Assembly: GCA_964016885.1 (NCBI GenBank) | Contig: OZ024741.1 | Location: 310,062,001-310,126,000, forward strand | From: Eledone cirrhosa | Taxonomy: Eukaryota | Reading direction: 5' to 3' | DNA: 64,000 bases | In this document: piece by piece, positions 5,786 through 53,765 of the stretch | Numbering within the stretch: position 1 is the stretch's first letter | How the letters are laid out: every line of letters begins with the position of its first letter | Notes under the pieces: generated by a model | Databases searched by the model: none | What the model was told of the DNA's origin: nothing | What the model saw: only the letters and a program-made list of their open reading frames with translations | Program-made: the position numbers and the translations under genes

Positions 5786-8700
5786 CAAAATGTTTTATAA
5801 ATATTTGACATGACCAAGGATGATATACCTTAACGGTTCAAGTTATCCTTGGATAGTGAAGGGAAGAGAGGAGAAAAGTCAGATATTTAAAATTATTAAT
5901 ATGAGTATGCAAATGATGTGTATATTAAAGGGCTGAAAAAACGTTATTTTAGACGCTATGGAAAATTTAAATATTTATGATAAGGAAGAAAGAGAAAAGA
6001 ATAACGTTAATTTTGGGGAAAAGATTTTTGTTACCTATATTATGAGTTATAAAATTATATGAAGAATTATGGTTGTAAGTATTTTTATCTTATTACATTA
6101 GAATAGGTTATATGTATATAAATATCTCTATATATATTAAGTTGCGTATGCATTGATTGTTTATATAAACAAATATGAGTTACGAAGGATGTTGAAAATT
6201 TTATTTTCAAGTTGTGAGATTAGAATAATTTGTGGATTCAAAAATGTTCAACATTGAGAATGTTTTCAGAATATTGTTAATTTAACGAAGCTATATAAAT
6301 TATCAAACTAAAATTGTTAAAGAAGGAAAAGGAAGATCACTTGAACGTTAATTTAGGGAAAATATATTCAGACATTTATCTATATTTATATGGAGAATTA
6401 TTTATCTTATAATAATATATAAATATCTATATATGTATTTTAATAATAGCATCCGACTCGGCGCAAATAACGGATCTTGTGGGCTTATTTATTAATAATA
6501 CACTGCATAGAAAAATGCCAGAGATGACCAGTGTTTATATTGAAAACCATAAGTGAAATTAATAAGAAAATAAAATCCATAATACAATTCTTCAATAATT
6601 ATAACCTTAAGTTAGAAATAACTATAAAATCGTTAACTTTTTAGACGTAACATTAAACCTTAGCACAGGGCTCTACTATCCATTCCATAAAATCAATGAG
6701 AATCTAAATTACGTAAGTTTTAACTCTAATCATCCTAGATCTATTAAGAATACTATCGTCAATAGTGTCCAGCAACGAATTTCCATCATCGCTGCTAATA
6801 AAAATATTTTTGAGGATAAGGCTGAATATTATAATAAAGCTTTACATAGAGCAGGATACTCAAATAGAATTAAATACATAGATAACAATAACATGACATA
6901 TCATCCTAGTATTAACTTAAACACTAAACCAAACAAAAAAAAAACTAGAACTAGAAATATTATTTGGTATTCTCCCTCATTCTCATTAAGCGTTAAAACA
7001 CCTTTAGCAAAGCTATTCTTTAAAGCACTAGACAAATGTTTTCCTAAAATCCACAGATACCACTCAATCTTTAACAGACATAATATAAAACTATCCTACT
7101 CTACTACTATGAACATAGCACAAAATATAAATAGAATTAATAATAGAAACTTAAATTTAAACCCTAACCAAAATAACCATAATAGTAATAACATTTCTAG
7201 CAATATCCAGTGTAATAGTACCGTTCTGAGCAACAACAACTCCGTAAAATGTAACTGTAGAATAAAATCAAACTGCCCTTTACAAAATAAGTGTTTAGAT
7301 AAAAACATAGTTTATAAATGTACAGTTAAAACTAGTGATAATATATTCAACTATGTCAGTGCCACTTCTACAGAATTTAAACTTTGCTGGAATAACCACA
7401 ATTGTTCTTTTAGAAGATCTGACAAAAAATATTCTACTACCCTCTCACATCTTATATGGAATTTAAAAAGCAGGAATATAGACTATTCATTATCTTGGAA
7501 AATGATTTCGAAAGCACCTGCTTACTGAAACACGGCCTTATCAAGATTCTGTAAATTATGTATTGAAGACATTTTTTATATAATTAATTGAAAAAACTCT
7601 ATTAATCTTAGAACAGAAATATTTAGTTGTTGCAAACATTGCCAAAATTCTACATTCAGAACTATATGTAACTTATAATATACTTATAATATTCCTATTA
7701 ATCTCCAAAATGATCTTACCTGCTCTAACATTTTATATTTTTAATACTTTAATATATTAATATCTCTAAATCATAATATCTTAAAAATTTCTTATAATAT
7801 ATATATACGTGTGTATGTATAGATATTTATATATATTTATGTACTTCTACATTATGTACTTCTATATAATTTTAATTTTAACTTTTTAAATTCTTTAATT
7901 TTTTTTTCTTAATTTTTTATTTTTCTAATGACACCCTCTAAAGCTAATTTTTAAATGTAGATTAATAACCATTAACTGTTTTTAGTAAAATATATACTAT
8001 TCAGGATGGTGTTTAAATATTCATATTTCTTTAGAATAAATAATTAATCCCACACTAGCGATTAATAAAAAAAATTGGAGTTATCTTTCCTACTTTCAAT
8101 CATAAACACTTTTTATACATAACTCCATTAATTTAACCTTATAAATTGTAACTGCCTATTTATTTACATAAAATCAACATCCCTAATAACTTATATTAGG
8201 AACAAACACCTATTTATTTTATTTATTTATAAATCAACATCCCTCGTAACTCATATTATAAACAAACTATCCTTTAAAAAAAAAACACATATGCTATTAT
8301 TAAAATACATATATAGATATTTATATATTATTATAATAAGATAAATAATTCTCCATATAAATATAGATAAATGTCTGAATATATTTTCCCTAAATTAACG
8401 TTCAAGTGGTCTTCCTTTTCCTTCTTCTTTAACAATTTTAGTTTGATAATTTATATAGCTTCGTTAAATTAACAATATTCTGAAAACATTCTCAATGTTG
8501 AAAATTTTTGAATTCGCAAATTATTCTAATCTCACAACTTGAAAATAAAATGTTCAACATCCTTCGTAACTCATATTTGTTTATATAAACAATCAATGCA
8601 TACGCAACTTAATATATATAGAGATATTTATATACATATAACCTATTCTAATGTAATAAGATAAAAATACTTACAACCATAATTTTTCATATAATTTTAT

Positions 8701-8992
8701 AACTCATAATATAGGTAACAAAAATCTTTTCCCCAAAATTAACGTTATTCTTTTCTCTTTCTCTTCCTTCCTTATAAATATTTAAATTTTCCAGTGTCTA
8801 AAATAACGTTTTTTCAGCCCTTTAATATACACATCATTTGCATACTGATATTAATAATTTTAAATATCTGACTTTTCTCCTCTCTTCCCTTCATTATCCA
8901 AGGATAACTTGAACCGTTAAGGTATATCATCCTTGGTCATGTCAAATATTTATAAAACATTTTGTATTTTATCTGATGATATTTTATCTGAT

Positions 8993-9338
8993 GGAGGCAC
9001 ATGGCTTAGTGGTTAGAGCATTGGCCTTGCAATCAAAAGGTTGTGAGTTCAATTCTCAGACCGGGTGATGTGTTGTTTCCTAGAGCAAGACACTTTATTT
9101 CACATTGCTCCAGTTTACTCAGCTGTAGAAATGAGATGATAGGGACTGGGGTCCATATCATTCCACTGCAAAGTGGTCGTGGAGGTGCCACAGCAAAAAA
9201 GCACCCAGCACTCACTGTAAATGAGGTTGGTGTTAGGAAGAGCATCCAGCTGTAGAAATCAAGCCAGAATCAGTTCCCGTCCCACCCTTGCAAGCAGGGA
9301 AAAAGCGGACGTAAAATGAAATGATGAATGATGATGAT
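8993..9338 (+). mobile_element. tRNA/CORE SINE (copy 2) inserted in the PLE right arm
   Basis: Same head, CORE and tail as 2424-2738; interrupts sequence that is continuous in the inverted left arm. Confidence 0.88.
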
Positions 9339-30422: not shown

Positions 30423-30527
30423 GTATATATATATATGTATATATATATATGTATATATATATATGTATATATATATATGTATATATATATATATGTATAT
30501 ATATATGATGGCATATATATATATATG
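29234..30527. repeat. Irregular (TA)n-TG array, about 1.3 kb
   Basis: TA runs of variable length punctuated by TG; almost no C on the + strand. Confidence 0.95.
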
Positions 30528-30535
30528 ATGGCATA

Positions 30536-32682
30536 CTTGCCATCACCGACACTGATAAGAAGGTAGCTTGGAAGTGTCACTATGAAAGGCTACTAAATGA
30601 GGAGAATAAATGGGAGAAAGACAGTCTCCCCCATATCGACCCGATAGAGGGACCAGCAGTGTTAGTCGAGGGGAGTATAATAAGTAAGGCAATCAAGGAT
30701 ATGAAGACTGGTAAGGCGGCTGGGCCTTCGGAAATAGTTGCTGAGATGCTGAAGGCATCTGGCACGGTGGGACACACCATGGTCACCCGCATAGTTAACC
30801 AAGTCGTACAGAATGGGGTTGTTCCGAAGGACTGGCATAGCAGCATCATCGTTAACTGTTATAAGGGTAAAGGAGACGCCCTAGATAGGAGTAACTATAG
30901 AGGCATTAAATTAATCGACCAGGTCATGAAGGTCACGGAAAAAGTAATAGCGCAACTAATCAGAGAGAGAATTGATCTAGATGAAATGCAGTTCGGGTTT
31001 GTGTCAGGCAAAAGCACCACAGACGCTCTTTTCATAGTACGACAACTACAGGAGAAGTACCTAGCTAAAGGTAAACCCCTCTACTTAGCTTTTGTCGACC
31101 TGGAGAAAGCCTTCGACAGAGTCCCCCGCTCCATTATCTGGTGGGCTCTTAGAAAACTAGGCGTTGACGAATGGCTTGTGAGGGCTATACAAGCCATGTA
31201 TAAAGAAACAGTCAGCAAGGTTAGAATTAACAACGAATATAGTGAAGAGTTTAGCGTAAAAGTTGGCGTCCATCAGGGCTCTGTTCTCAGCCCCCTACTA
31301 TTTATTATTGCCCTTCAGGCTATAACAGAGGAGTTCAAGACAGGCTGCCCATGGGAACTCCTATACGCAGACGACCTGACACTCATAGCGGAATCAATGG
31401 CCGAGCTAGAGAAGAAATTCCAAACATGGAAGCACGGCCTAGAGTCAAAAGGACTTAAAATTAACCTGGCTAAGACCAAAGTTCTAGTTTGTAGGAAAGA
31501 AAACAAGGCGGCGGTCCCTTCTGGGAAATGGTCGTGCTCGGTATGTAGGAAAGGCGTAGGTAGAAACTCCATCTTATGTCCTAAATGCAAAGTATGGGTG
31601 CATAAAAGATGTAGTGGGATCACAGGTAAGCTAACTAAGAACATAGACTTTACATGTGGCCGATGTTCTGGTGCAATAAGTAGCAGCAAGTGCCCACAAA
31701 ATACTAGCTCTTTCAAGTGCGCAGAGGGTTCTATAGAAATAGTGGACAGCTTCCGTTACCTGGGCGATAAAATCAGCAGTGGGGGAGGGTGCTCTGAAAG
31801 TACTGTAGCTAGAGTCAGAACTGGTTGGAAAAAGTTCAGAGAGCTTATACCACTATTAGCTGCTAAAGGGTTCTCCCTAAAAATGAAAGGCAGGTTGTAC
31901 GATGCCTGCATACGAACAGCAATGTTGCATGGTAGTGAGACCTGGGCATTGTGTGCAGAGGATATACGTAGACTAGAGAGGAACGAAGCTTGCATGCTCC
32001 GCTGGATGTGTAACAGTAATATACGTGAACGGCAAAGCATAAACGAACTAAGGAAAAAATTAGAGATAAGAGGGATCAGATGTTGTTTACTCGAGAGAAG
32101 GCTGCGTTGGTATGGACACGTGATGCGCATGAAAGTCGATAGCTGTATTACAAAGTGCAGGGCAATAAAGATAGACGGTAGCCACGGAATAGGCAGACCT
32201 AGAAAAACATGGGATGAGCTGATAAACTCCGACCTCATACACTTACACCTCTCCAAGACAATGTCACTGGACCGTGACCTTTGGCGGTACTCAGTAACAG
32301 AGAAGACCCGCCTTGCCAGTAGGCATCTCTAACAAACTACACCCCGTCCCGCCACCACCCCCACCCCATCCACACCACCCCGTTCCATGTAAAGTTATGT
32401 TGGTGCCGCGCCATCCAGGCCGAAACAAACGAGATCGTGTAGGTGTCACGACAAAAAAACACACAGTCCACGCTGTAATGTGGCCGTGTAGGCAACACGG
32501 TAAAAACCTCCCAGACCCACACTGTAAATGTGGTTGGTGTTAGGAAGGGCATCCAACTGTAGAAAATCTGCCAGACAGTCCTATGCGAGCAAGACAATCA
32601 CTCTTGCCTCAAGTGGGACTACCCCCGTCCAAACCCATGCAAGCGTGGAACACGGACGTTAAACGTTGATGATGATGATGAT
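30536..32682 (+). mobile_element. RTE LINE family A, 5'-truncated, uninterrupted RT-PHD-C-terminal ORF (30659-32332)
   Basis: 557-aa ORF with full RT motifs; 3' UTR and (GAT)n tail. Confidence 0.95.
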
Positions 32683-36690
<4,008 letters not shown>

Positions 36691-37302
36691 TTATGTCAGG
36701 TCACCAGTTGGTGCTACTGGTAACATGTATTCCAGTACAACCTGTCTCATGGTCGGGTCGTTGGCGACTAAACTGGCAACCCCACCAAGGTTTCTTGGTG
36801 AGGAGGGTGGCTTTGGACATCCTGCAGGACTAAAAACAAAACCTGTCAAAAGGCAAAGGGGCTCTTAAGAGTCAATAGCCATCCAAAATCACCGGGAGAG
36901 ATGACCCCTTAGCCTTTGTCAAGGCAGAATTCTAGGAGAAGGAAAACTCTGATATAACACCTGCAACCCTGATGGTATCCAATGATGTTGAATTATTCTT
37001 CTTTTTGGTAAATATCATCTTGGTTAAGAGAGTGGGACTGGCTTTGTGCAGTGCCTTTGCTCACTATAAAAGCTTCACAGCACAGGCATTGCTTTATATC
37101 TGGAGATCTCTCTGCACTTGTCGCCACATGGTACCATGGGCCCAGCACTATGTGTCAATAATTGTCACAGGTGTAGTGTTTGTACCAGAGTTTTCAAGTC
37201 GCTGGCTGGACTAAAAAGTCACACTCGTTCAGCGCATTGGTAGGGGTTCTCCTACATGGATATAGAGCAGTGGCCGTACTCGAAAACGAGTTGGCAGCCA
37301 CC
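36691..37302 (+). mobile_element. Non-autonomous LINE-derived element: RTE-like 5' UTR joined to the last codons of a C2H2 finger and a 3' end
   Basis: CTAGGAGAAGGAAAACTCTGA (recalled as an RTE 5' UTR motif); 37172-37237 reads [22 protein letters not shown]; second copy at 10412-10845. Confidence 0.7.
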
Positions 37303-38410
<1,108 letters not shown>

Positions 38411-38992
38411 AAAAACAAATAACGAAACGAAATTAAATTTTGTTTCGTTTGTAACTCACTTTTGTATGACTGACGCTTAAACAATTAAGTTAAAAATGTA
38501 CATCCACATATGTATACTGAAATACTAGTATGCATATGAATACACACACGTGTACATATGTAGATGTACCGAGTTTTTCACTGGACACTTTACTGTCAGT
38601 GTCCAGCTATTCTGTATGTAAACACACAGACAAACCGGTTTTTAGAGTCATACTGGTTTTCGAGGAAACACCTTTCCTCTATTCTCCAGAAAGCCAGACA
38701 AGGAATATTGGACTAGTTTCGATGTTGTTACATCTCATCAGCAATATTTACCTATCTTCCGGCCTTTCTAGAGAATCGTAAAAGCACATATCGTTATATG
38801 CTTTTTCTATGAAAATTAGTAGTGGGCAGACTAATTTGCATAGAGCGTGAGTACGTACCGGTTCAGCGGAGACGATAAAAACAAATAACGAAACGAAATT
38901 AAATTTCGTTTCGTTTGTAACTCACTTTTGTATGACTGACGCTTAAACAATTAAGTTAAAAATGTACATCCACATATGTATACTGAAATACT
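38411..38992 (-). mobile_element. Retrozyme-like non-coding element: 466-bp unit plus 116-bp terminal redundancy
   Basis: 38411-38526 is repeated at 38877-38992 (one mismatch seen); internal hammerhead and several hairpins; no credible ORF. Confidence 0.75.
38704..38748 (-). ncRNA. Canonical minimal type I hammerhead ribozyme
   Basis: AATATTG-CTGATGA-GATGT AACA ACATC-GAAA-CTAG-TC^CAATATT: 7-bp stem I, 5-bp stem II, palindromic stem III, GUC triplet. Confidence 0.92.
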
Positions 38993-38995
38993 GAA

Positions 38996-40665
<1,670 letters not shown>

Positions 40666-40669
40666 TTAA

Positions 40670-43600
40670 TTTTACTGATGTAGTATTAACTTGGATATTT
40701 ACCATGCGACCCTCAGTTCCTACCTCACAATTTCCCTCCCCCCACCCCCACACACCACCTAGTCTATTCGACCAATCAAACCTAGCATGCCATTTCCACT
40801 GCTGCTGCTACTACCTGCCTAACTAACTCTCTCCTCCTCTGGCGCATCCCAACACACCCTGCCATTACCCCACCACCACTGTTCTTCTAACCCTCAATTT
40901 TCCCACCGTTATGCATGGATGAGCTGGGAATACACGAGCAACTCTGAATCAATAGATGAAATATGAATCTGCGAGCTACCAAGCACCCACGTGAAGCGCC
41001 AACCCAGAGACCCTCCCCTACGAGTGTCGAAAAATGCCCAAAACTCCGAGTTGGTACCATCAATGTAGGCTCAATGAAAGGAAGAGCAGGAGAAATCGTA
41101 GAAATGCTAGAGCGAAAGGAAGTTGATGTATGCTGTGTGCAAGAGACTAGATGGAGAGGAGGGTCTGCTAGAGTCCTTGTGGGAAAAAGCCAGTGCTACA
41201 AATTTTTCTGGGTGGGAAATGACGATGGGATGGGTGGTGTAGGTATACTATTAGCTGACAAGTGGGTAGATAAAGTAATCTCAGTGTACAGGGTAAATGC
41301 AAGAATCATTAAACTCAGACTAGTCCTGAATAAGACAATTACCACAATAATATCAGCTTACGCACCCCAATCGGGGCTGCCAGACGAACTTATGGATAGG
41401 TTTTACGAGTCCCTAATACACACTACTGCTCTAACAGACGACAAGGACTTCCTAATCATTGCAGGAGATTTTAACGGACACGTAGGTAAACACTGCGACG
41501 GCTTCAATAGAGTACATGGAGGCCATGGAGTTGGCACAAGGAATGAGGAAGGATTCAGACTTCTAGAATTCTGCGACGCCAATGACATGTCGATATGTAA
41601 CACAAACTTTAAAAAACCCGACAACCACCTGATCACCTATAGATCAGGGGAGCACTCTAGTCAGTTAGATTTTATCCTCATCAGAGGACGTGACAGATGG
41701 ACGGTCGTAAACACAAAAGCCTTCCCTAGTGAGGAATGTACATCCCAACATAGCTTAGTTGTCAGCGACCTCACGGTCAGAACTAGACGAGCCCTGAAAC
41801 AGAGGCCAACCTGGAGAAGAAAGATCTGGAAGCTGAAAGTCCCCTCAACCAGTAACAGATTTAAAGATATTTTACTCAACGCCTACGACAGTAAAGAAGA
41901 ACAGATAGAGACATTTAACGTAGAAGAGAACTGGGAGTTCCTAAAAAATAACTTACTAGAGGCGACGGATGAGGTTTGTGGCTGGAGTAAGACCTCAAGC
42001 AGGAGGAGAGTGACTTGGTGGTGGAACAATAAGGTAGATGAAGCAGTCAAGGCCAAGAGACAGGCATGGAAAGAATGGAAGAACGGGGGGAGCAGGGTAC
42101 ATTACATAGAGACCAAGAGGGAAGCTAGGCGACAAGTATACTTAGCTAGGAGGGAAGCAGAGGATAGAAAATTCAAGCATGTTTTACAACGTGAGGACCA
42201 GAAACAGGAGGTATTCAAGATTGCGAGGCAGTGTGTCAGAGATAGTTGTGATGTCATTGGAGAGAAGTGTATCCGGAATGATAAAGGTGAGCTTGCCCTC
42301 ACAAGTGCTGAGAAGAAAGATGCATGGAAGAGTCATTATGATAGATTACTAAATGAGGAGAATGCATGGGAAGAAGAGACCCTACCCCACGTAGACCCTA
42401 TAGAGGGACCAGCAGTACAAGTCAGCGGCAGCGTAGTAAGTAAGGCAATCAGAGATATGAAGATAGGGAAGGCAACCGGTCCATCGGGTATAGCTGCCGA
42501 GATGCTGAAGGCATCTGGGTCTGTAGGTCACACTATAACCACACGTATCGTTAACCAGGTAATACTAGAGGGGGCCATACCAAAAGATTGGTGCAGTAGC
42601 ATCATTGTCTACTGCTACAAAGGTAAAGGCGATGCACTAGATAGAGGAAACTATAGAGGTATAAAGTTGATGGACCAGGTCATGAAAGTAACAGAAAGAG
42701 TTATAGCACAGCTGATTAGGGACCGGGTGAATATAGACGAGATGCAATTTGGGTTTGTACCAGGGAAAGGCACCACTGATGCCCTCTTCCTTGTGAGGCA
42801 ATTACAGGAAAAGTACCTAGCTAAAAGTAAGCCACTCTACTTGGCATTTGTCGACCTTGAGAAAGCCTTTGACAGAGTTCCACGTGCAGTAATCTGGTGG
42901 GCTCTTAGAAAACTAGGAGTAGATGAATGGCTTGTGAAAGCGGTACAAGCCATGTATAGAGGAGCAGTCAGCAAAGTTAGGATTGGCAATGAGTATAGCG
43001 AGGAATTTAGCGTACAGGTTGGGGTCCACCAGGGCTCTGTTCTTAGCCCTCTCCTGTTCATCATAGTCCTGCAGGCAATAACGGAGGAGTTTAAGACCGG
43101 ATGCCCATGGGAACTCCTGTATGCTGATGACCTCGCACTCATAGCTGAATCTATGGTAGAACTAGAGAATAAATTCCAAACCTGGAAGCAGGGACTAGAG
43201 AGAAAGGGCCTCAAAGTCAACATGACAAAGACTAAGGTCCTTATAAGTAGACGAGAAAACAGAACCCAGATCCCCTCAGGGAAATGGCCTTGCTCAGTAT
43301 GTAGGAAAGGTGTAGGTAGGAACTCCATTCTCTGCCCCAAATGCAAACAATGGGTACACAAGAGATGTAGCGGGATCTCAGGAAGCTTAATTAAGAATGT
43401 AGGATTCACATGCAGCAGCTGTGATGAAACAGCAAGCAAACAGCCACAGGAAACAAGTACCACCAATCTCTGGGAGGGCTCTGTAGAAACAGTAGACAGC
43501 TTCTGCTACCTAGGTGACCGAATTAGCAACGGAGGTGGGTGCTCAGAAAGTACAATAACTAGGGTAAGAACGGGATGGAAGAAGTTTAGGGAACTACTAC

Positions 43601-44322
43601 CACTGCTAGCTGCAAAAGGCTTCTCCCTCAGAATGAAAGGCAGACTGTATGATGCGTGTATCCGAACAGCGATGTTGCATGGTAGTGAGACCTGGGCGCT
43701 GAAGGTGGAAGACTTACGTAGATTAGAGAGAAACGAAGCCTGCATGCTCCGATGGATGTGTAACAGTAATATACGTGAACGACAAAGCATAAAGGAATTG
43801 AGAGAGAGACTGAGCATAAGAGGAATCAAATGCTGCGTGCAGGAGAGGCGGTTACGCTGGTATGGACATGTGATGCGTATGAAGGATGACAGCTGCATAA
43901 AAAGGTGCAGAGCACTAGAAGTTGATGGAAACCGCGGAGTGGGGAGACCCAAGATGACTTGGGATGAGGTGATAAAAGCCGACCTTACCCAACTACACCT
44001 CTCAAAGTCAATGACACACGACCGTGACTTCTGGCGTCACGCAGTAATACAGGGTACCCGACCTCCCATGGGTACATGCTGAAGCATATACACCCAGCCC
44101 ACACTGTAAAGTGGACGTGTAGGTGCCACGAAAAAGCACCCAGCACTCACTGTAAATGAGGTTGGTGTTAGGAAGGGCATCCAGCTGTAGAAATCAAGCC
44201 AGATCAGTTCCTGTATGAGCAAGGCATGGTCAGCCGACCAGACACTGCACACAACAGGACAACCCGTCTAACCCATGCTAGCGTGGAAGAACGGACGTAA
44301 AACGGTGATGATGATGATGATG
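40670..44322 (+). mobile_element. RTE LINE family C, apparently full length
   Basis: C-rich 5' UTR of about 290 nt, one long ORF, structured 3' UTR, (GAT)n tail; TA arrays on both sides. Confidence 0.95.
40963..44082 (+). CDS. APE endonuclease - reverse transcriptase polyprotein with internal PHD-type zinc finger (1039 aa)
   Basis: TINVGSM, CVQETRW, SAYAPQ, GDFNGHVG, QLDF, SQHSLV (EN); YADD at 43120; C4HC3 at 43291-43422; no stops. Confidence 0.95.
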   Translation: MNLRATKHPREAPTQRPSPTSVEKCPKLRVGTINVGSMKGRAGEIVEMLERKEVDVCCVQETRWRGGSARVLVGKSQCYKFFWVGNDDGMGGVGILLADKWVDKVISVYRVNARIIKLRLVLNKTITTIISAYAPQSGLPDELMDRFYESLIHTTALTDDKDFLIIAGDFNGHVGKHCDGFNRVHGGHGVGTRNEEGFRLLEFCDANDMSICNTNFKKPDNHLITYRSGEHSSQLDFILIRGRDRWTVVNTKAFPSEECTSQHSLVVSDLTVRTRRALKQRPTWRRKIWKLKVPSTSNRFKDILLNAYDSKEEQIETFNVEENWEFLKNNLLEATDEVCGWSKTSSRRRVTWWWNNKVDEAVKAKRQAWKEWKNGGSRVHYIETKREARRQVYLARREAEDRKFKHVLQREDQKQEVFKIARQCVRDSCDVIGEKCIRNDKGELALTSAEKKDAWKSHYDRLLNEENAWEEETLPHVDPIEGPAVQVSGSVVSKAIRDMKIGKATGPSGIAAEMLKASGSVGHTITTRIVNQVILEGAIPKDWCSSIIVYCYKGKGDALDRGNYRGIKLMDQVMKVTERVIAQLIRDRVNIDEMQFGFVPGKGTTDALFLVRQLQEKYLAKSKPLYLAFVDLEKAFDRVPRAVIWWALRKLGVDEWLVKAVQAMYRGAVSKVRIGNEYSEEFSVQVGVHQGSVLSPLLFIIVLQAITEEFKTGCPWELLYADDLALIAESMVELENKFQTWKQGLERKGLKVNMTKTKVLISRRENRTQIPSGKWPCSVCRKGVGRNSILCPKCKQWVHKRCSGISGSLIKNVGFTCSSCDETASKQPQETSTTNLWEGSVETVDSFCYLGDRISNGGGCSESTITRVRTGWKKFRELLPLLAAKGFSLRMKGRLYDACIRTAMLHGSETWALKVEDLRRLERNEACMLRWMCNSNIRERQSIKELRERLSIRGIKCCVQERRLRWYGHVMRMKDDSCIKRCRALEVDGNRGVGRPKMTWDEVIKADLTQLHLSKSMTHDRDFWRHAVIQGTRPPMGTC

Positions 44323-44572: not shown

Positions 44573-45954
44573 TTTCGTTTCTGAATTTGTTTAGCAAGAT
44601 TCTTTATCTGAAATGGTGTGTTGAAACCGATATTGTTATACTTTGGGACGGTCATGTTGCCAATAAGAAACACACGCACCAGTTGCTTTCACTTCAATTT
44701 ATTATTATAATAAATTTATAAATTTCTAGCTGGTTGGTTGGTTCCACAACCAGATAGTTGTTTATATATTGTCATAGTCCTTTCGTCACACACTCTGCGA
44801 CCTCTTCAGTGACTGGGGATTCCTTTCTTTGTTTCTGTGCCTCTCCTTTGTTCTGTCCTACGCCATTTTGTTTCTGTGTGTGTGTTGTGTGCTCAGTCTG
44901 CGCATGCGCGACATCCGGGTGTCTGTGTGTGTTTATGTTCATTTATTTATTTGTTTATTTACATGTTACTGGTTGGTTGTTTGTTCTATGTGTGTGTGTG
45001 TTTTCATTTTGTCCTTAATTGTAAGTTGTGATGTTGCTGTTCTAATTTTGGTTGTAATTCTTTTATGTTTATTGCCTCTGTAATTTGTCTAAACATTGCG
45101 TCTTTTCTGTGTGTAGATTCTATTTTTATTTCTATGTTCTCTAATTTACCCTTGTGTTCTATTTTAGCATGTTGGTAGAGTACAGATGATTCTTTACTAT
45201 CTTGAAGGTCTCGCCAGTGTTCATTTATCCGTTCCCCTACACTACGAGCTGTCTCACCTATGTACACTATATTTTTGTCTCTACATTGTCCTTCAGTACA
45301 TCTTATGCTATACACTACATTTCTAGTTTTACAGTTAATATGGGGGCTTATTTTACAGGTTATACATTTCTTATCTATACAGAGGGGTCTTTGAAAAGGG
45401 TATGTCTTGCTAATAAGTGTTTTTACGGAGGTACCTGGTCTTTCTACTATCTTAATATTGAGGTTATGTTTATCTAGGGCTCTTCTAAATTTGTAAGCTA
45501 ATTCACCTCTAGGGGTTGTATCGATGAACATTACACTCTGGTATTTATTGCTATCATACCATAAGTTTATTCTATTAGTCTTATTCCTAGTTCTTTCTAT
45601 TCTATTCCAAAATTTGCTCCTATACAAGGGGCAGGTCCCATTTATGTCATTATTTACCATTTTTTCCCATTTGGTTCTGGCTCCTCTATACACTCTGATT
45701 TTATCTCTCTGATTGTAGCCAGAGAACTACATACGGTGGATGAAGTGTTGTATGTGTCTCTCTGGTTCTTCGGGGTTGCACATGCGGGACACGTTTCTCA
45801 TCACCTGTACCAAATCCGCAATCAGTATTTTGGACCATACCAAAATCAACATACTGATTGCGGATTTGGTACGGGTGATGAGAAACGTGTCCCGCATGTG
45901 CAACCCCGAAGAACTAGAGAGACACATACAACACTTCATCCACCGTATGCAGTT
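44573..45954 (-). mobile_element. Third PLE, 5'-truncated (thumb and GIY-YIG), with about 100 bp folded back at the truncation point
   Basis: ORF 45004-45693(-) has NVVYSIRC..YIGETARSVGERINEH; inverted repeat 45725-45828 / 45851-45954. Confidence 0.88.
44771..44813 (-). ncRNA. Minimal type I hammerhead ribozyme in the PLE 3' region
   Basis: GTCA-CTGAAGA-G GTCGCA GAGTG TGTGAC-GAAA-GGAC-TA^TGAC. Confidence 0.7.
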
Positions 45955-48174: not shown

Positions 48175-50210
48175 ATCATCATCATCATCATTTTACGTCC
48201 GCTTTTCCCTGCTTGCAAGGGTGGGACGGGTCTTATTCAGCACAGCATCTCTCCACTCGTCACGGTCCCTCGTCATCTCCACCGTGAGCTTCAATGATCT
48301 GAGGTCTGTTCTCACCACCTCTGCCCATGTTTTTCGTGGTCTACCTCTACCACGTCTTCCCTCAACTGGCATTTCCTGGCACTTCTTCACCCATCGGTCA
48401 TCCTCCATGCGCATCACATGTCCATACCACCTCAGTCTCCTCTCCCGTACACTACATTCTATCCCTCTCAGACACAGTTTCTCTCTCAACACATTTATGC
48501 TGGGTCGTTCACGCACATTTACACTGCACATCCAACGGAGCATGCTTGCCTCATTTCTCTCCAGCCGTCGCATATCCTCTGCGGTTGCTGCCCATGTCTC
48601 ACTACCATGCAGCATCGCGCTCCTCACACAGGCATCATACAACCGGCCTTTCGTACGCAGGGAGAAACCCTTCTTCGTCAACAGAGGAAGCAGCTCCCTA
48701 AACTTCTTCCAACCCGTCCTTATTCTAGATACTATGGCCTCGGAACACCCTCCTCCCATGCTAATCTGATCTCCTAGGTACCGGAAGCTATCCACCACTT
48801 CTATAGCGCCTTCTCGCATTTGAAAAATGTGTCTATCAGTGCGACTTCTACTGTCTAATTTCCCTGTACATCTACTGCATACATATTTCTCCCTACCTGT
48901 TAGTTTGCCTGCTATCCCGCTACATCTCTTGTGTACCCAGGACCTGCATTGTGTGCATTTTATAGAATTTATGCCAGTTCCTTTTCTGCATATCGAACAT
49001 GGCCATTTCCCTGACGGAATCAGGGTTTTGTCCTCTTTTCTACTCATCAACACTTTTGTCTTAGCTAGATTTACTCTCAGTCCTCTTGCTTCCAACTGCT
49101 GTTTCCATAGCCGGAATTTATTCTCTAGCTCCTCTACTGATTCTGCCATAAGAGCCAGATCGTCAGCATAGAGAAGTTCCCATGGACAGCCAGTCTTAAA
49201 CTCCTCTGTTATGGCTTGGAGGACTATAATGAACAAGAGCGGGCTGAGGACCGAACCCTGATGTACTCCTACTTGTATCTGGAATTCCTCACTAAACTCC
49301 ATTCCTACCCTGACTTTACTGAGAGTACCTCTGTACAAAGTTTGCACTGTCCTCACAAGCCATTCCTCAACACCCAGCTTCCTTAGGGACCACCAGATGA
49401 CAGATCGGGGTACCCTATCAAAGGCCTTCTCTAGGTCAACAAAGGCTAAGTATAGTGGCTTATTCTTCTCTAAGAACCTCTCTTGCATTTGTCTCACCAA
49501 GAAGAGGGCATCTGTTGTACTCTTCCCAGGCACAAAACCAAACTGCATCTCATCTAGTTTGACCCTTTCTCTAATTAGTTGTGCTAAAATCCTTTCTGCC
49601 ACTTTCATAACCTGATCTATCAGCTTTATACCCCTATAATTGCTCCTCTCCAAAGCATTCCCTTTACCTTTGTAGCAATTTATGAGAATACTGCTGCACC
49701 AGTCTTTGGGTATGACACCACCATATATAGCCTGATTGATGATGCGTGCAACCAGTTTAGTGCCTACGTCCCCTGATGCCTTCAGCATCTCAGCAACTAT
49801 TCCCGATGGTCCGGCCGCCTTACCATTTTTCATTTCCCTAATCGCCTCTTGGAGCCTATATTCGTCAATCTCAATAGCTGGTCCCTCTGTCGGATCTACC
49901 AAGGGTAATTTCTCTCTCTCCCATTCGTTCTCCACATTCATCAGTCTCTCATAATGACATTTCCAGGCCTCCTTTTTCTGGTCATTCGTGACACTAAGTA
50001 CACCGGCATCATCCCGGACACATTTATCACCAACAACATCCTGATTTGCATTGACACACTACCTTGCAATGTGGAACACCGCACGTCTCTGATCTTCCCG
50101 TCGCAGAACATTGGCAAACTTCCTACTCTCTGCCTCCCTGCGTGCTAAGTACACCTGACGTCTAGCTTCTCTCTTAGTGGCTGTATATTCTTCCCTACTC
50201 CCACCCTCTT
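48175..50210 (-). mobile_element. RTE LINE family B, 5'-truncated, uninterrupted ORF 48193-49941
   Basis: 582-aa RT-PHD ORF whose stop lies immediately before the tail; homologous to 12225-14244. Confidence 0.95.
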
Positions 50211-51583: not shown

Positions 51584-53416
51584 ACGTTTAACGTCCGTGT
51601 TCCACGCTTGCATGGGTTTGGACGGGGGTTTTCCCACTTGAGGCAAGAGTGGTTGTCTTGCTCGCACAGGGCCGTCTGGCGGGTTTTCTACAGTTGGATG
51701 CCCTTCCTAACACCAACCACATTTACAGTGGGGGTCTGGGAGGTTTTTACCGTGTTGCCTACACGGCCACATTACAGCGTGGACTGTGTGTATTTTTGTC
51801 GCGACACCTACAAGATCTCATTTGTTTCGGCCTGGATGGCGCGGCACCAACATAACTTTACATAGAACGGGGTGGTGTGGATGGGGTGGTGGTGGTGGCG
51901 GGACGGGCTGTATTTTGTTAGAGATGCCTACTGGCAAGGCGGGTCTTCTCTGTTACTGAGTACCGCCAAAGGTCTCGGTCCAGTGACATTGTCTTGGAGA
52001 GGTGTAAGTGTGTGAGGTCGGAGCTTATCAGCTCGTACCAGGTTTTTCTAGGTCTGCCTATTCCGTGGCTACCGTCTATCTTTATTGCCCTGCACTTTGT
52101 TATACAGCTATCGACTTTCATGCGCATCACGTGTCCATACCAACGTAGCCTTCTCTCGAGTAAACAACATCTGATCCCTCTTATCTCTAATTTTTTCCTT
52201 AGTTTGTTTATGCTTTGCCGTTCACGTATATTACTGTTACACATCCAGCGGAGCATGCAAGCTTCGTTCCTCTCTAGTCTGCGTATATCCTCTGCACACA
52301 ATGCCCAGGTCTCACTACCATGCAACATTGCTGTTCGTATGCAGGCATCGTACAACCTGCCTTTCATTTTTAGGGAGAACCCTTTAGCAGCTAATAGTGG
52401 TATAAGCTCTCTGAACTTTTTCCAACCAGTTCTGACTCTAGCTACAGTACTTTCAGAGCACCCTCCCCCACTGCTGATTTTATCGCCCAGGTAACGGAAG
52501 CTGTCCACTATTTCTATAGAACCCTCTGCGCAATTGAAAGAGCTAGTATTTTGTGGGCACTTGCTGCTACTTATTGCACCAGAACACCGGCCACATGTAA
52601 AATCTATGTTCTTAGTTAGCTTACCTGTGATCCCACTACATCTTTTATGCACCCATACTTTGCATTTAGGACATAAAATGGAGTTTCTACCTACGCCTTT
52701 CCTACACACCGAGCACGACCATTTCCCAGAAGGGACCGCCGCCTTGTTTTCTTTCCTACAAACTAGAACTTTGGTCTTAGCCAGGTTAATTTTAAGTCCT
52801 TTTGACTCTAGGCCGTGCTTCCATGTTTGGAATTTCTTCTCTAGCTCGGCCATTGATTCCGCTATGAGTGACAGGTCGTCTGCGTATAGGAGTTCCCATG
52901 GGCAGCCTGTCTTGAACTCCTCTGTTATAGCCTGAAGGGCAATAATAAATAGTAGGGGGCTGAGAACAGAGCCCTGATGGACGCCAACTTTTACGCTAAA
53001 CTCTTCACTATATTCGTTGTTAATTCTAACCTTGCTGACTGTTTCTTTATACATGGCTTGTATAGCCCTCACAAGCCATTCGTCAACGCCTAGTTTTCTA
53101 AGAGCCCACCAGATAATGGAGCGGGGGACTCTGTCGAAGGCTTTCTCCAAGTCGACAAAAGCTAAGTAGAGGGGTTTACCTTTAGCTAGGTACTTCTCCT
53201 GTAGTTGTCGTACTATGAAAAGAGCGTCTGTGGTGCTTTTGCCTGACACAAACACGAACTGCATTTCATCTAGGTCAATTCTCTCTTTGATTAGTTGCGC
53301 TATTACTTTTTCCGTGACCTTCATGACCTGGTCGATTAATTTAATGCCTCTATAGTTACTCCTATCTAGGGCATCTCCTTTACCCTTATAACAGTTAACG
53401 ATGATGCTGCTATGCC
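51553..53416 (-). mobile_element. RTE LINE family A, 5'-truncated, reverse orientation
   Basis: ORF 51918-53324(-), 468 aa; 3' UTR and tail. Confidence 0.95.
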
Positions 53417-53765
53417 GGGGGTTTTCCCACTTGAGGCAAGAGTGGTTGTCTTGCTCGCATAGGACTGTCTGGCAGGTTTTCTACAGTTGGATGCCCTTCC
53501 TAACACCAACCGCATTTACAGTGTGGGGCTGGGAGGTTTTTACCGTGTTGCCTACACGGCCACATTACAGCGTGGACTGTCTGGCAGGTTTTCTACAGCT
53601 GGATGCCCTTCCTAACACCAACCACATTTACAGTGTGGGACTGGGACGTTTTTACCGTGTTGCCTACACGGTCATATTACAGCGTGGACTGTGTGTTTTT
53701 TTTTTTTCGTGACACCTACACGATCTCATTTGTTTCGGCCTGGATTTTGTGGCACCAACATAACT
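53417..53765 (-). mobile_element. Tailless, internally duplicated family A 3' UTR fused to the 5' break of the preceding copy
   Basis: About 53463-53580 is repeated at about 53574-53692; no terminal hairpin or (GAT)n. Confidence 0.85.

Follow-up and report, generated by a model that had tools for sequence, protein, structure and literature searches.

The window analyzed here is a stretch of 64,000 nucleotides from Eledone cirrhosa (contig OZ024741.1, positions 310,062,001 to 310,126,000 of the forward strand). Positions 38411-38992 form a non-coding island of 582 bases between TA/TG tracts (Table 1). When the island was compared with itself at an offset of 466, 115 of 116 positions matched, against 27-48 matches at 19 other offsets (455-474). 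This confirmed the reading of an earlier note on this DNA, in which the island consisted of 1.25 copies of a 466-bp unit. The sole mismatch between the two partial copies lies at position 38441, and because of it the AACGAAACGAAATT/AATTTCGTTTCGTT hairpin, listed in the same note, is perfect only in the second copy (38887-38915). The other hairpins listed there are present in the sequence, as is the octamer ATTTGCAT at 38834-38841, and the listed hairpins also appear in the predicted circular fold of the unit. The unit has a G+C content of 36%, no LTR structure, and no protein coding; its longest ATG frame comprises 19 codons on the sense strand and 83 codons on the other strand.

The 3' end of the copy lies at 38409-38411, where AT is common to the element and the TA tract, and its 5' end lies at ~38992. 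A segment of ~221 bp carrying the 5' junction of the element (its last 9 bases) is tandemly repeated at 39209-39429 within the right TA tract, and 198 of 221 positions of this duplication (38988-39429) match without gaps. Elsewhere in the window, LINE reverse-transcriptase frames are found at 1-1185, 30509-32329, 40960-44079, 48196-50058, and 51921-53480; one of them is open for 1,040 codons, and several end in ATG/ATC triplet tails beside TA tracts. We take these LINEs to be RTE-like.

Table 1. Features of the island, its flanks, and the related sister family. Coordinates are those of the window unless a locus is named.
Feature	Position	Strand	Basis
Insertion of the 466-bp family, 1.25 units, 5'-truncated	38409..38992	- (sense)	Self-match and genome matches
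TA/TG microsatellite target, left	37302..38410	.	Sequence
TA/TG microsatellite target, right	38988..40666	.	Sequence
"Long" fixed 3' end (putative reverse-transcription start 1), used by the window copy	38409..38411	-	Arm ends
"Short" fixed 3' end (putative start 2), unused by the window copy	38478..38483	-	Arm ends
~70-nt "tail" between the end sites	38411..38482	-	Arm ends; concept from PMC8557442, PMC11167929
Type I hammerhead motif	38704..38748	-	Motif scan, Rfam HH9, covariation with older sister family
Candidate transcription start (A of TCA at 38848), then ATGCAAAT octamer	38834..38850	-	Arm stops, conservation
Sister family copies	L048:3385-4533, L038:1-635, L091:2695-3264, L118:6540-7255, L242

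The unit carries a canonical type I hammerhead motif

A complete hammerhead with a GUC triplet and a palindromic CTAG had been noted on the minus strand, and both the motif scan and Rfam confirmed it. Read from 38748 to 38704, it runs AATATTG-CTGATGA-GATGT, the loop, ACATC-GAAA-CTAG-TC and, after the cut predicted between 38711 and 38710, CAATATT. It consists of a 7-bp helix I, the CUGAUGA core, a 5-bp helix II with an AACA loop, GAAA, the GUC triplet, and a helix III of 1-2 bp with palindromic CUAG. The Rfam HH9 match (38688-38759), at 38.9 bits with E 2.2e-8, fell short of the gathering score (52), and the other matches of the Rfam scan were only miRNA and UTR models on TA repeats, far below threshold. 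Both scans found the hammerhead in one polarity of the unit only. The predicted fold of the 91-nt hammerhead region was that of hammerhead helices I and II (z -2.8). The term "minimal" used in the earlier note does not hold: by the definition in PMC4209133, this is a canonical metazoan type I hammerhead with a short helix III and a palindromic loop. In the same source, a short palindromic helix III in type I hammerheads is described as favoring cleavage as a dimer.

We then aligned 16 hammerheads of the 466-bp family and an older sister family. Both sides had changed in 6 of 14 pairs, and the covariation score was 0.369, compared with 0.125 ± 0.023 for shuffled alignments and at most 0.112 for slid controls; the score rests on about two lineages, and six double-changed pairs were reached by 38 of 500 shuffles. 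These results suggest that the ribozyme core is intact and has been kept under sequence change, and self-cleavage is predicted.

At least five other hammerhead variants were seen near TA tracts (L033:2992-3057, L047:1165-1229, L049:6227-6304, L053, L055, and L061) and are probably the ends of further PLE (Penelope-like element) families. A short tandem of the start of one other variant lies in the window at 8965-8993, near a PLE-like reading frame fragment at 6611-7525.

The 466-bp repeat is a young, high-copy family

In a DNA search of the genome in which 40 of 544 candidate places were scored, at least 162 matches were obtained, many of them spaced 466 apart; identity to the window copy was 96-100% among the 150 listed. 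The exact 34-nt ribozyme core occurred 1,608 times, with the spacing of 466 also seen, and a control gave 0. Tandem and circularly permuted copies, proposed earlier as a check, are therefore abundant. On the plus strand alone, there were 1,294 exact matches to the long 3' end joined to TA and 630 to the short 3' end joined to TA; being counts of exact patterns, these are lower bounds. The former number suggests about 2,600 insertions. The minus-strand counts (1,494 and 1,242), inflated by overlapping matches, were not used. Family copies are dispersed over many chromosomes. The window copy has one hammerhead, and two or more consecutive hammerhead units are present in the family (433 motif hits), in which every sequence-level feature of the retrozyme class was found; the earlier assignment to this type is thus supported. 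These results indicate that the 466-bp repeat is a young, high-copy family of the non-LTR retrozyme type, located at thousands of TA-microsatellite sites.

Older subfamilies share 88-95% identity with the family. A sister hammerhead repeat family of ~470 bp, also older, is colinear with it at ~63% identity. The two families agree in their ends joined to TA, in the octamer block, and in the CUAG of helix III, and they are fused to each other in L048 and L242. Arrays reach 15 or more units per arm (15.6 units resolved), and most are uniform for their own subfamily variants. Higher-order periods of 4 and 6 units were found on one arm only (L038, L039_40, and L112), which points to duplication at the DNA level, so that array length is no clean count of turns round a template. 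Later block duplication in the DNA probably lengthened the longest arrays.

Very long arrays were observed at L141 (C1:5738088-5752750), L106, L158, and L227. L141, of which the ends were read, would span ~14.6 kb between its paired ends if continuous, and L106 exceeds 20 units. The tail of the array length distribution is heavier than random fall-off predicts. The insertions L176 and L177, separated by 18 kb, are identical and probably reflect a local duplication or redundancy in the assembly.

Insertions have two fixed 3' ends and pair as inverted arms

We examined 178 loci with family matches, window included, mostly the first ones on C1. They were picked from the best genome matches, the first core places, and the 80 first long ends on C1, together with 37 chosen by the short end, three more long ends, and two beside PLE copies. 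Arms of at least 60 nt whose 3' end abuts TA were counted (n = 273); L177, as a duplicate of L176, was left out of this count and kept among the 94 junctions described below and in the any-phase count.

Nearly all TA-abutting arm ends (271/273) fell at two sites ~70 nt apart, phases 464-1 and 67-78. The long end was used by 143 arms, 133 of these at one phase, and 130 used the short end (phases 67-78), 115 of these at 68 or 73. Within the island, the long-end site recurs internally at 38875-38877 and the short-end site at 38944-38949, and TA loose ends were found at both sites (38478 and 38875) in run X1, which may come from the source sample itself. The tail between the sites holds the long hairpin, at 38421-38449 with one mismatch and perfect at 38887-38915. 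Where two inverted arms adjoin, 93 of 94 junctions combined a long with a short end; one was short with short, and none was long with long. Two complex short-with-short loci (L228 and L251) fall outside the 94. The 5' ends of the arms were spread round the unit, and the largest cluster, at phases 36-42, coincides with the palindromic hairpin and is read as fold-back microhomology. The window copy used the long end and has no second arm; its length of 1.25 units is nothing special and marks one of many random 5' truncation points.

The combination of two fixed ends, 5' truncation, an inverted arm, and a (TA)n target is the "tail" signature of PLEs. The tail, the inverted copy, and the (TA)n bias are known for these elements (PMC8557442), and the tail is the stretch between two internal reverse-transcription starts (PMC11167929). 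The suggestion of PLE machinery in the earlier note is supported by the anatomy of both ends and pairs. One apparent PLE between two units, at C1:154.71 Mb, turned out to be one unit split by a LINE-containing insert (L097).

The long arrays and block duplications (more than 20 units in L106; L112) could also be produced by a satellite spreading at the DNA level through extrachromosomal circles, a Helitron-like process, or recombination, with the ribozyme as a passenger. Fixed 3' and random 5' ends, long-with-short pairing, and TA targeting, however, are polarized in the manner of target-primed reverse transcription, and the ends of the PLEs found in these loci follow an identical pattern. We consider DNA-level dispersal, already largely refuted by these data, highly improbable.

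Some arms meet PLE pieces, and none of those sampled abuts a PLE reading frame in the same sense

The 5' flanks of the 273 arms were translated and compared with 105 PLE-like frames from the sampled loci; many matches of 15-19 residues, from frames running into the repeat or the tail, were left out. In this comparison, no arm (0/273) was abutted by a same-sense PLE ORF. In L049, a same-sense PLE fragment lies 146 nt upstream of an arm, and a flank match in L201 proved to be a LINE. A large share of the arms, 181 of 273, continue into the previous unit. The earlier note had set a retrozyme against a non-autonomous PLE; these are not rivals, as PLE-like fixed 3' ends occur here with no attached ORF. 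Non-autonomous, PLE-mobilized non-LTR retrozymes are a published class, to which the 466-bp family likely belongs, and the two alternatives are therefore one thing.

An inverted PLE coding piece adjoins each of three arms, at distances of 0, 1, and 37 nt (L033, L138, and L160), and by eye the arms of L194, L178, and L202 meet PLE 3' ends. In L033, a retrozyme arm with the long end is joined 5'-to-5' and without a gap to a PLE piece with its own short end. Copies of this PLE were ~100% identical in 40 of 40 scored cases (1,285 candidates). It encodes a reverse transcriptase, a CX4CxxC linker of the Neptune type, and GIY-YIG; the type was read from the linker, and the sole Pfam match was a weak one to RVT_1. 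This PLE has a long and a short end of its own, ~58 nt apart, and TATCGT at the long site is common to it and the 466-bp family. On these sequence features, the young Neptune-type PLE (P0001) appears to be the likeliest helper, a best candidate that is not pinned down. The partners in fused arms include three or more PLE families as well as the sister retrozyme (L033, L138, L160, L194, L048, and L242) and hence name no single helper, and some of the fusions may have arisen at the DNA level in shared TA tracts.

An older, 5'-truncated copy of the candidate helper lies in the window at 44573-45726 on the minus strand, with a GIY-YIG frame at 45007-45726, a hammerhead-like motif of its own near 44780-44815, a long end at 44573 in a TA tract, and a short inverted piece upstream. 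The closest named relative of a neighboring PLE protein is a prediction from Octopus vulgaris, at 70% identity. In L129 and L130, the reading frame of the young PLE starts just before the short end, and the tail therefore lies within its first codons, as reported for the anole element.

If the unit were only the pseudo-LTR of an autonomous PLE, the island would be a truncated PLE copy. Its ends do behave exactly as PLE ends, the PLE fragment of L049 lies close by in the same sense, and 24 of 57 Xenopus retrozyme families match annotated elements, nearly all at PLE termini (10.64898/2026.07.22.740005). The absence of an abutting same-sense ORF and the run-on of the 181 arms speak against this. 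In addition, a low-stringency BLAST against the window and 66 loci (30 with GIY-YIG) returned only the family, its sister family, and TA-rich noise among the matches listed. Descent from a PLE pseudo-LTR was not seen in the sampled loci, where only the 6-nt context at the long site is common. The hammerhead in the terminal region of the young PLE also differs from that of the 466-bp family; PLE candidates were found with GIY-YIG (PF01541), and as 150 of 10,596 were scored, a rare parent is possible. We judge this explanation improbable.

The template was longer than one unit and is probably circular

The earlier note had taken terminal redundancy as a mark of a circle, which fails because an uncut multimeric transcript leaves the same trace. 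A template longer than one unit is supported, since the 181 arms cross the unit junction. The ribozyme cut site was passed by 221 of 273 arms, twice by 100 and five times by 19. A pile-up of 5' ends at the cut was looked for among the arms and was not found: 3 of 225 first passes stopped there (1.3 expected) and 2 of 244 later passes (2.1 expected). Among 433 motif hits, none had an indel at the cut itself, and two had lost one base two bases further on. Background-level stops and the lack of a scar at the cut argue against template jumping between cut monomers.

Stops were also examined at the candidate transcription start, where the TCAC-octamer block is conserved in the alignment with the older sister family; the sequence suggests a promoter function. 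We assume that the TCA at 38848 is initiator-like. At phases 437-443, a window chosen after seeing the data, 9 of 196 arms stopped on the first pass compared with 1.2 expected (p 3.5e-6, uncorrected, 53 windows). On later passes, only 1 of 219 stopped there (Fisher p 0.008 against the first pass); the later passes lack independence, and taken by itself the second pass gave 0 of 88 (p 0.06). Early stops without later ones fit an endless template. The 9-10 arms stopping at phases 437-443 point to uncut linear RNA, if the candidate start is real.

We next compared variants between paired arms, leaving out rows with ~130-195 variants (wrong-strand palindromic anchor) and the majority line. The two arms were closer to each other than to the median other locus in all 19 loci with whole units on both arms, and no further apart than the nearest other locus in 16 of them. 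L046, L054, and L114 each had their variants in every unit of both arms, and a two-unit alternation was found on both arms in L057. These results indicate that the same template served both arms. Inversion junctions were not inherited: among the 94, only L176/L177 repeat, with a near-match in L066/L151.

The circular fold of the unit was predicted at -157.8 kcal/mol (z -11.6, 0/60 shuffles) with the hammerhead exposed; the opposite strand also folds (z -7.1), and part of the fold signal is therefore plain inverted repeats. Single contigs of 495 and 497 bases in two runs, one of them going back 466, were considered as circles and rejected, as a collapsed DNA array gives the same result.

A highly paired circular fold of 466 nt would also suit a viroid-like RNA with RNA-to-RNA replication, copied into the genome by occasional reverse transcription, and the sequence heterogeneity of mussel retrozyme circles left RNA replication open (PMC7229834). 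The hammerhead, however, is found in one polarity only, and RNA replication is not needed to account for the spread, for which the thousands of nearly identical copies in the genome, with their PLE ends, suffice. Of all the explanations considered, this is the least probable. The phrase "new viroid-like circRNA family" in the earlier note was overstated, as the class had already been described and no data here bear on RNA-to-RNA replication.

The weightiest alternative is a PLE-mobilized family copied from uncut linear multimers, with circles as a by-product and arrays kept by unequal DNA exchange. Uncut RNA was used by a purified anole PLE protein in vitro, as its dominant substrate and with no need for the ribozyme (PMC11167929). 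The first-pass stops suggest at least occasional use of uncut linear RNA, the one-arm higher-order periods reflect growth at the DNA level, and monomers would cleave poorly with so weak a helix III (PMC4209133). Against this stand the 187 of 196 arms that pass the first candidate start, with a single stop in the later passes, the donors' inversion junctions, which are not inherited, and the uniformity of most arrays for subfamily variants. We regard copying from linear multimers as a real but less probable possibility and, on balance, favor a circular over a linear template. The explanation as a whole, PLE-driven insertion into TA microsatellites from a template that is probably circular RNA, is assigned a probability of roughly 55%.

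A possible insertion cycle

Arrays would be transcribed from an internal start near phase 438 (38848 in the window). Neighboring hammerheads would pair through the palindromic ACUAGU helix III and then cut, and monomers and some multimers would be ligated into circles by a host ligase. The PLE protein would cut both strands of the TA tract, and both DNA ends would serve as primers on one and the same RNA, each at one of its two internal start sites. Each cDNA would go round the template until it falls off, after which the two cDNA 5' ends would be joined. From single-ribozyme loci such as that of the window, most of the RNA would be linear and uncut, a possible reason for the copies of 440 nt that end at the start site. 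With its one ribozyme, the window locus is a product, and no 466-nt monomer or circle can be released from it. The simplest joint reading is that single-ribozyme loci give uncut linear RNA and arrays give circles.

The insertions may be a direct genomic record of the retrozyme cycle so far only proposed, in which a PLE protein primes both cut DNA strands at two fixed sites on one circle; we put this at slightly below even odds. With the same reserve, rolling might leave the inverted long and short arms, and the helper need not share the unit sequence. Equally tentative is the idea that in some insertions the helper brings a retrozyme circle together with a PLE mRNA or with a sister retrozyme.

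Because the class is already known, the island is no discovery of kind: the 466-bp family is new, and its kind, the non-LTR retrozymes, is known. PLE integration is only partly understood (PMC11167929), and the value of the island is that of a test case with unusually clear mechanistic traces. The family is young and abundant; its start sites are defined at the base level, its paired ends obey a strict long-with-short rule, and it has a candidate promoter as well as a candidate helper that is active alongside it. These traits make the question of whether PLEs copy circles, and the origin of the tail and the inverted arm, directly testable.

Comparison with known systems

Non-LTR retrozymes have units of 220-245 bp in coral, 350-390 bp in mussel, and 330/350 bp in axolotl, and their circles were demonstrated by Northern blot, according to Cervera and de la Pena 2020 (PMC7229834); in that paper and in PMC7761336, it is hypothesized that PLEs are the likely helpers and that circles are the likely templates. 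As with the elements described there, the tandem units of the 466-bp family are non-coding, lack an LTR, and carry a single type I hammerhead; the G+C content is under 50%, arrays range from dimers to long ones, PLEs are present in the same genome, and the predicted circle is highly paired with the ribozyme exposed. Its unit is slightly above the 150-450 bp given in that text for metazoan non-LTR retrozymes and within the 51-972 bp of 10.64898/2026.07.22.740005. Circles were shown for those elements, whereas the 466-bp family is known from genomic sequence alone. Double fixed 3' ends, inverted arms, and TA targeting are seen here and are not described in the main text of PMC7229834, the supplement of which may list further molluscan repeats.

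Animal retrozymes have been argued to be non-autonomous PLE derivatives (Li, Clavereau, and Pollet 2026, 10.64898/2026.07.22.740005), and we reach the same conclusion about the class of helper. The evidence in that work was co-occurrence and pseudo-LTR likeness in vertebrates (35 genomes, no mollusc), whereas ours is insertion anatomy and fused arms, with no pseudo-LTR parent found in the sampled loci. In the same work, only 1 of 9 dimers of predicted Xenopus retrozymes was cleaved in vitro; this result and our Rfam score below gathering count against the best explanation. In the literature searched, outside which lay Repbase, Dfam, subscription papers, and two supplements, neither a cephalopod retrozyme nor a description of long-with-short end pairing in retrozymes was found. 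A giant squid genome paper lists 235 hammerhead matches but does not analyze them (PMC6962438).

Viroids and satellite circular RNAs with hammerheads resemble the family in size and in the predicted self-paired circle; unlike them, the family has a hammerhead on one strand, is genomic, and spreads via DNA copies. Chlamys/MRC1 of Chlamydomonas are likewise non-autonomous PLE derivatives with multi-copy head-to-tail insertions; their 3' ends are like those of their autonomous partners, and their clade is said to lack canonical hammerheads (PMC8557442). In anatomy, the family resembles the Neptune, Naiad, and Hydra PLEs (PMC8557442) and the anole Poseidon PAc (PMC11167929), which share 5' truncation, partial tandems, an inverted truncated arm, a one-end tail, (TA)n targets, and two internal starts. 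In contrast to these endonuclease-bearing PLEs, the family has no ORF, a tail of ~70 nt rather than 30-40, a hammerhead that is canonical rather than minimal, and a unit that forms a closed 466-bp cycle.
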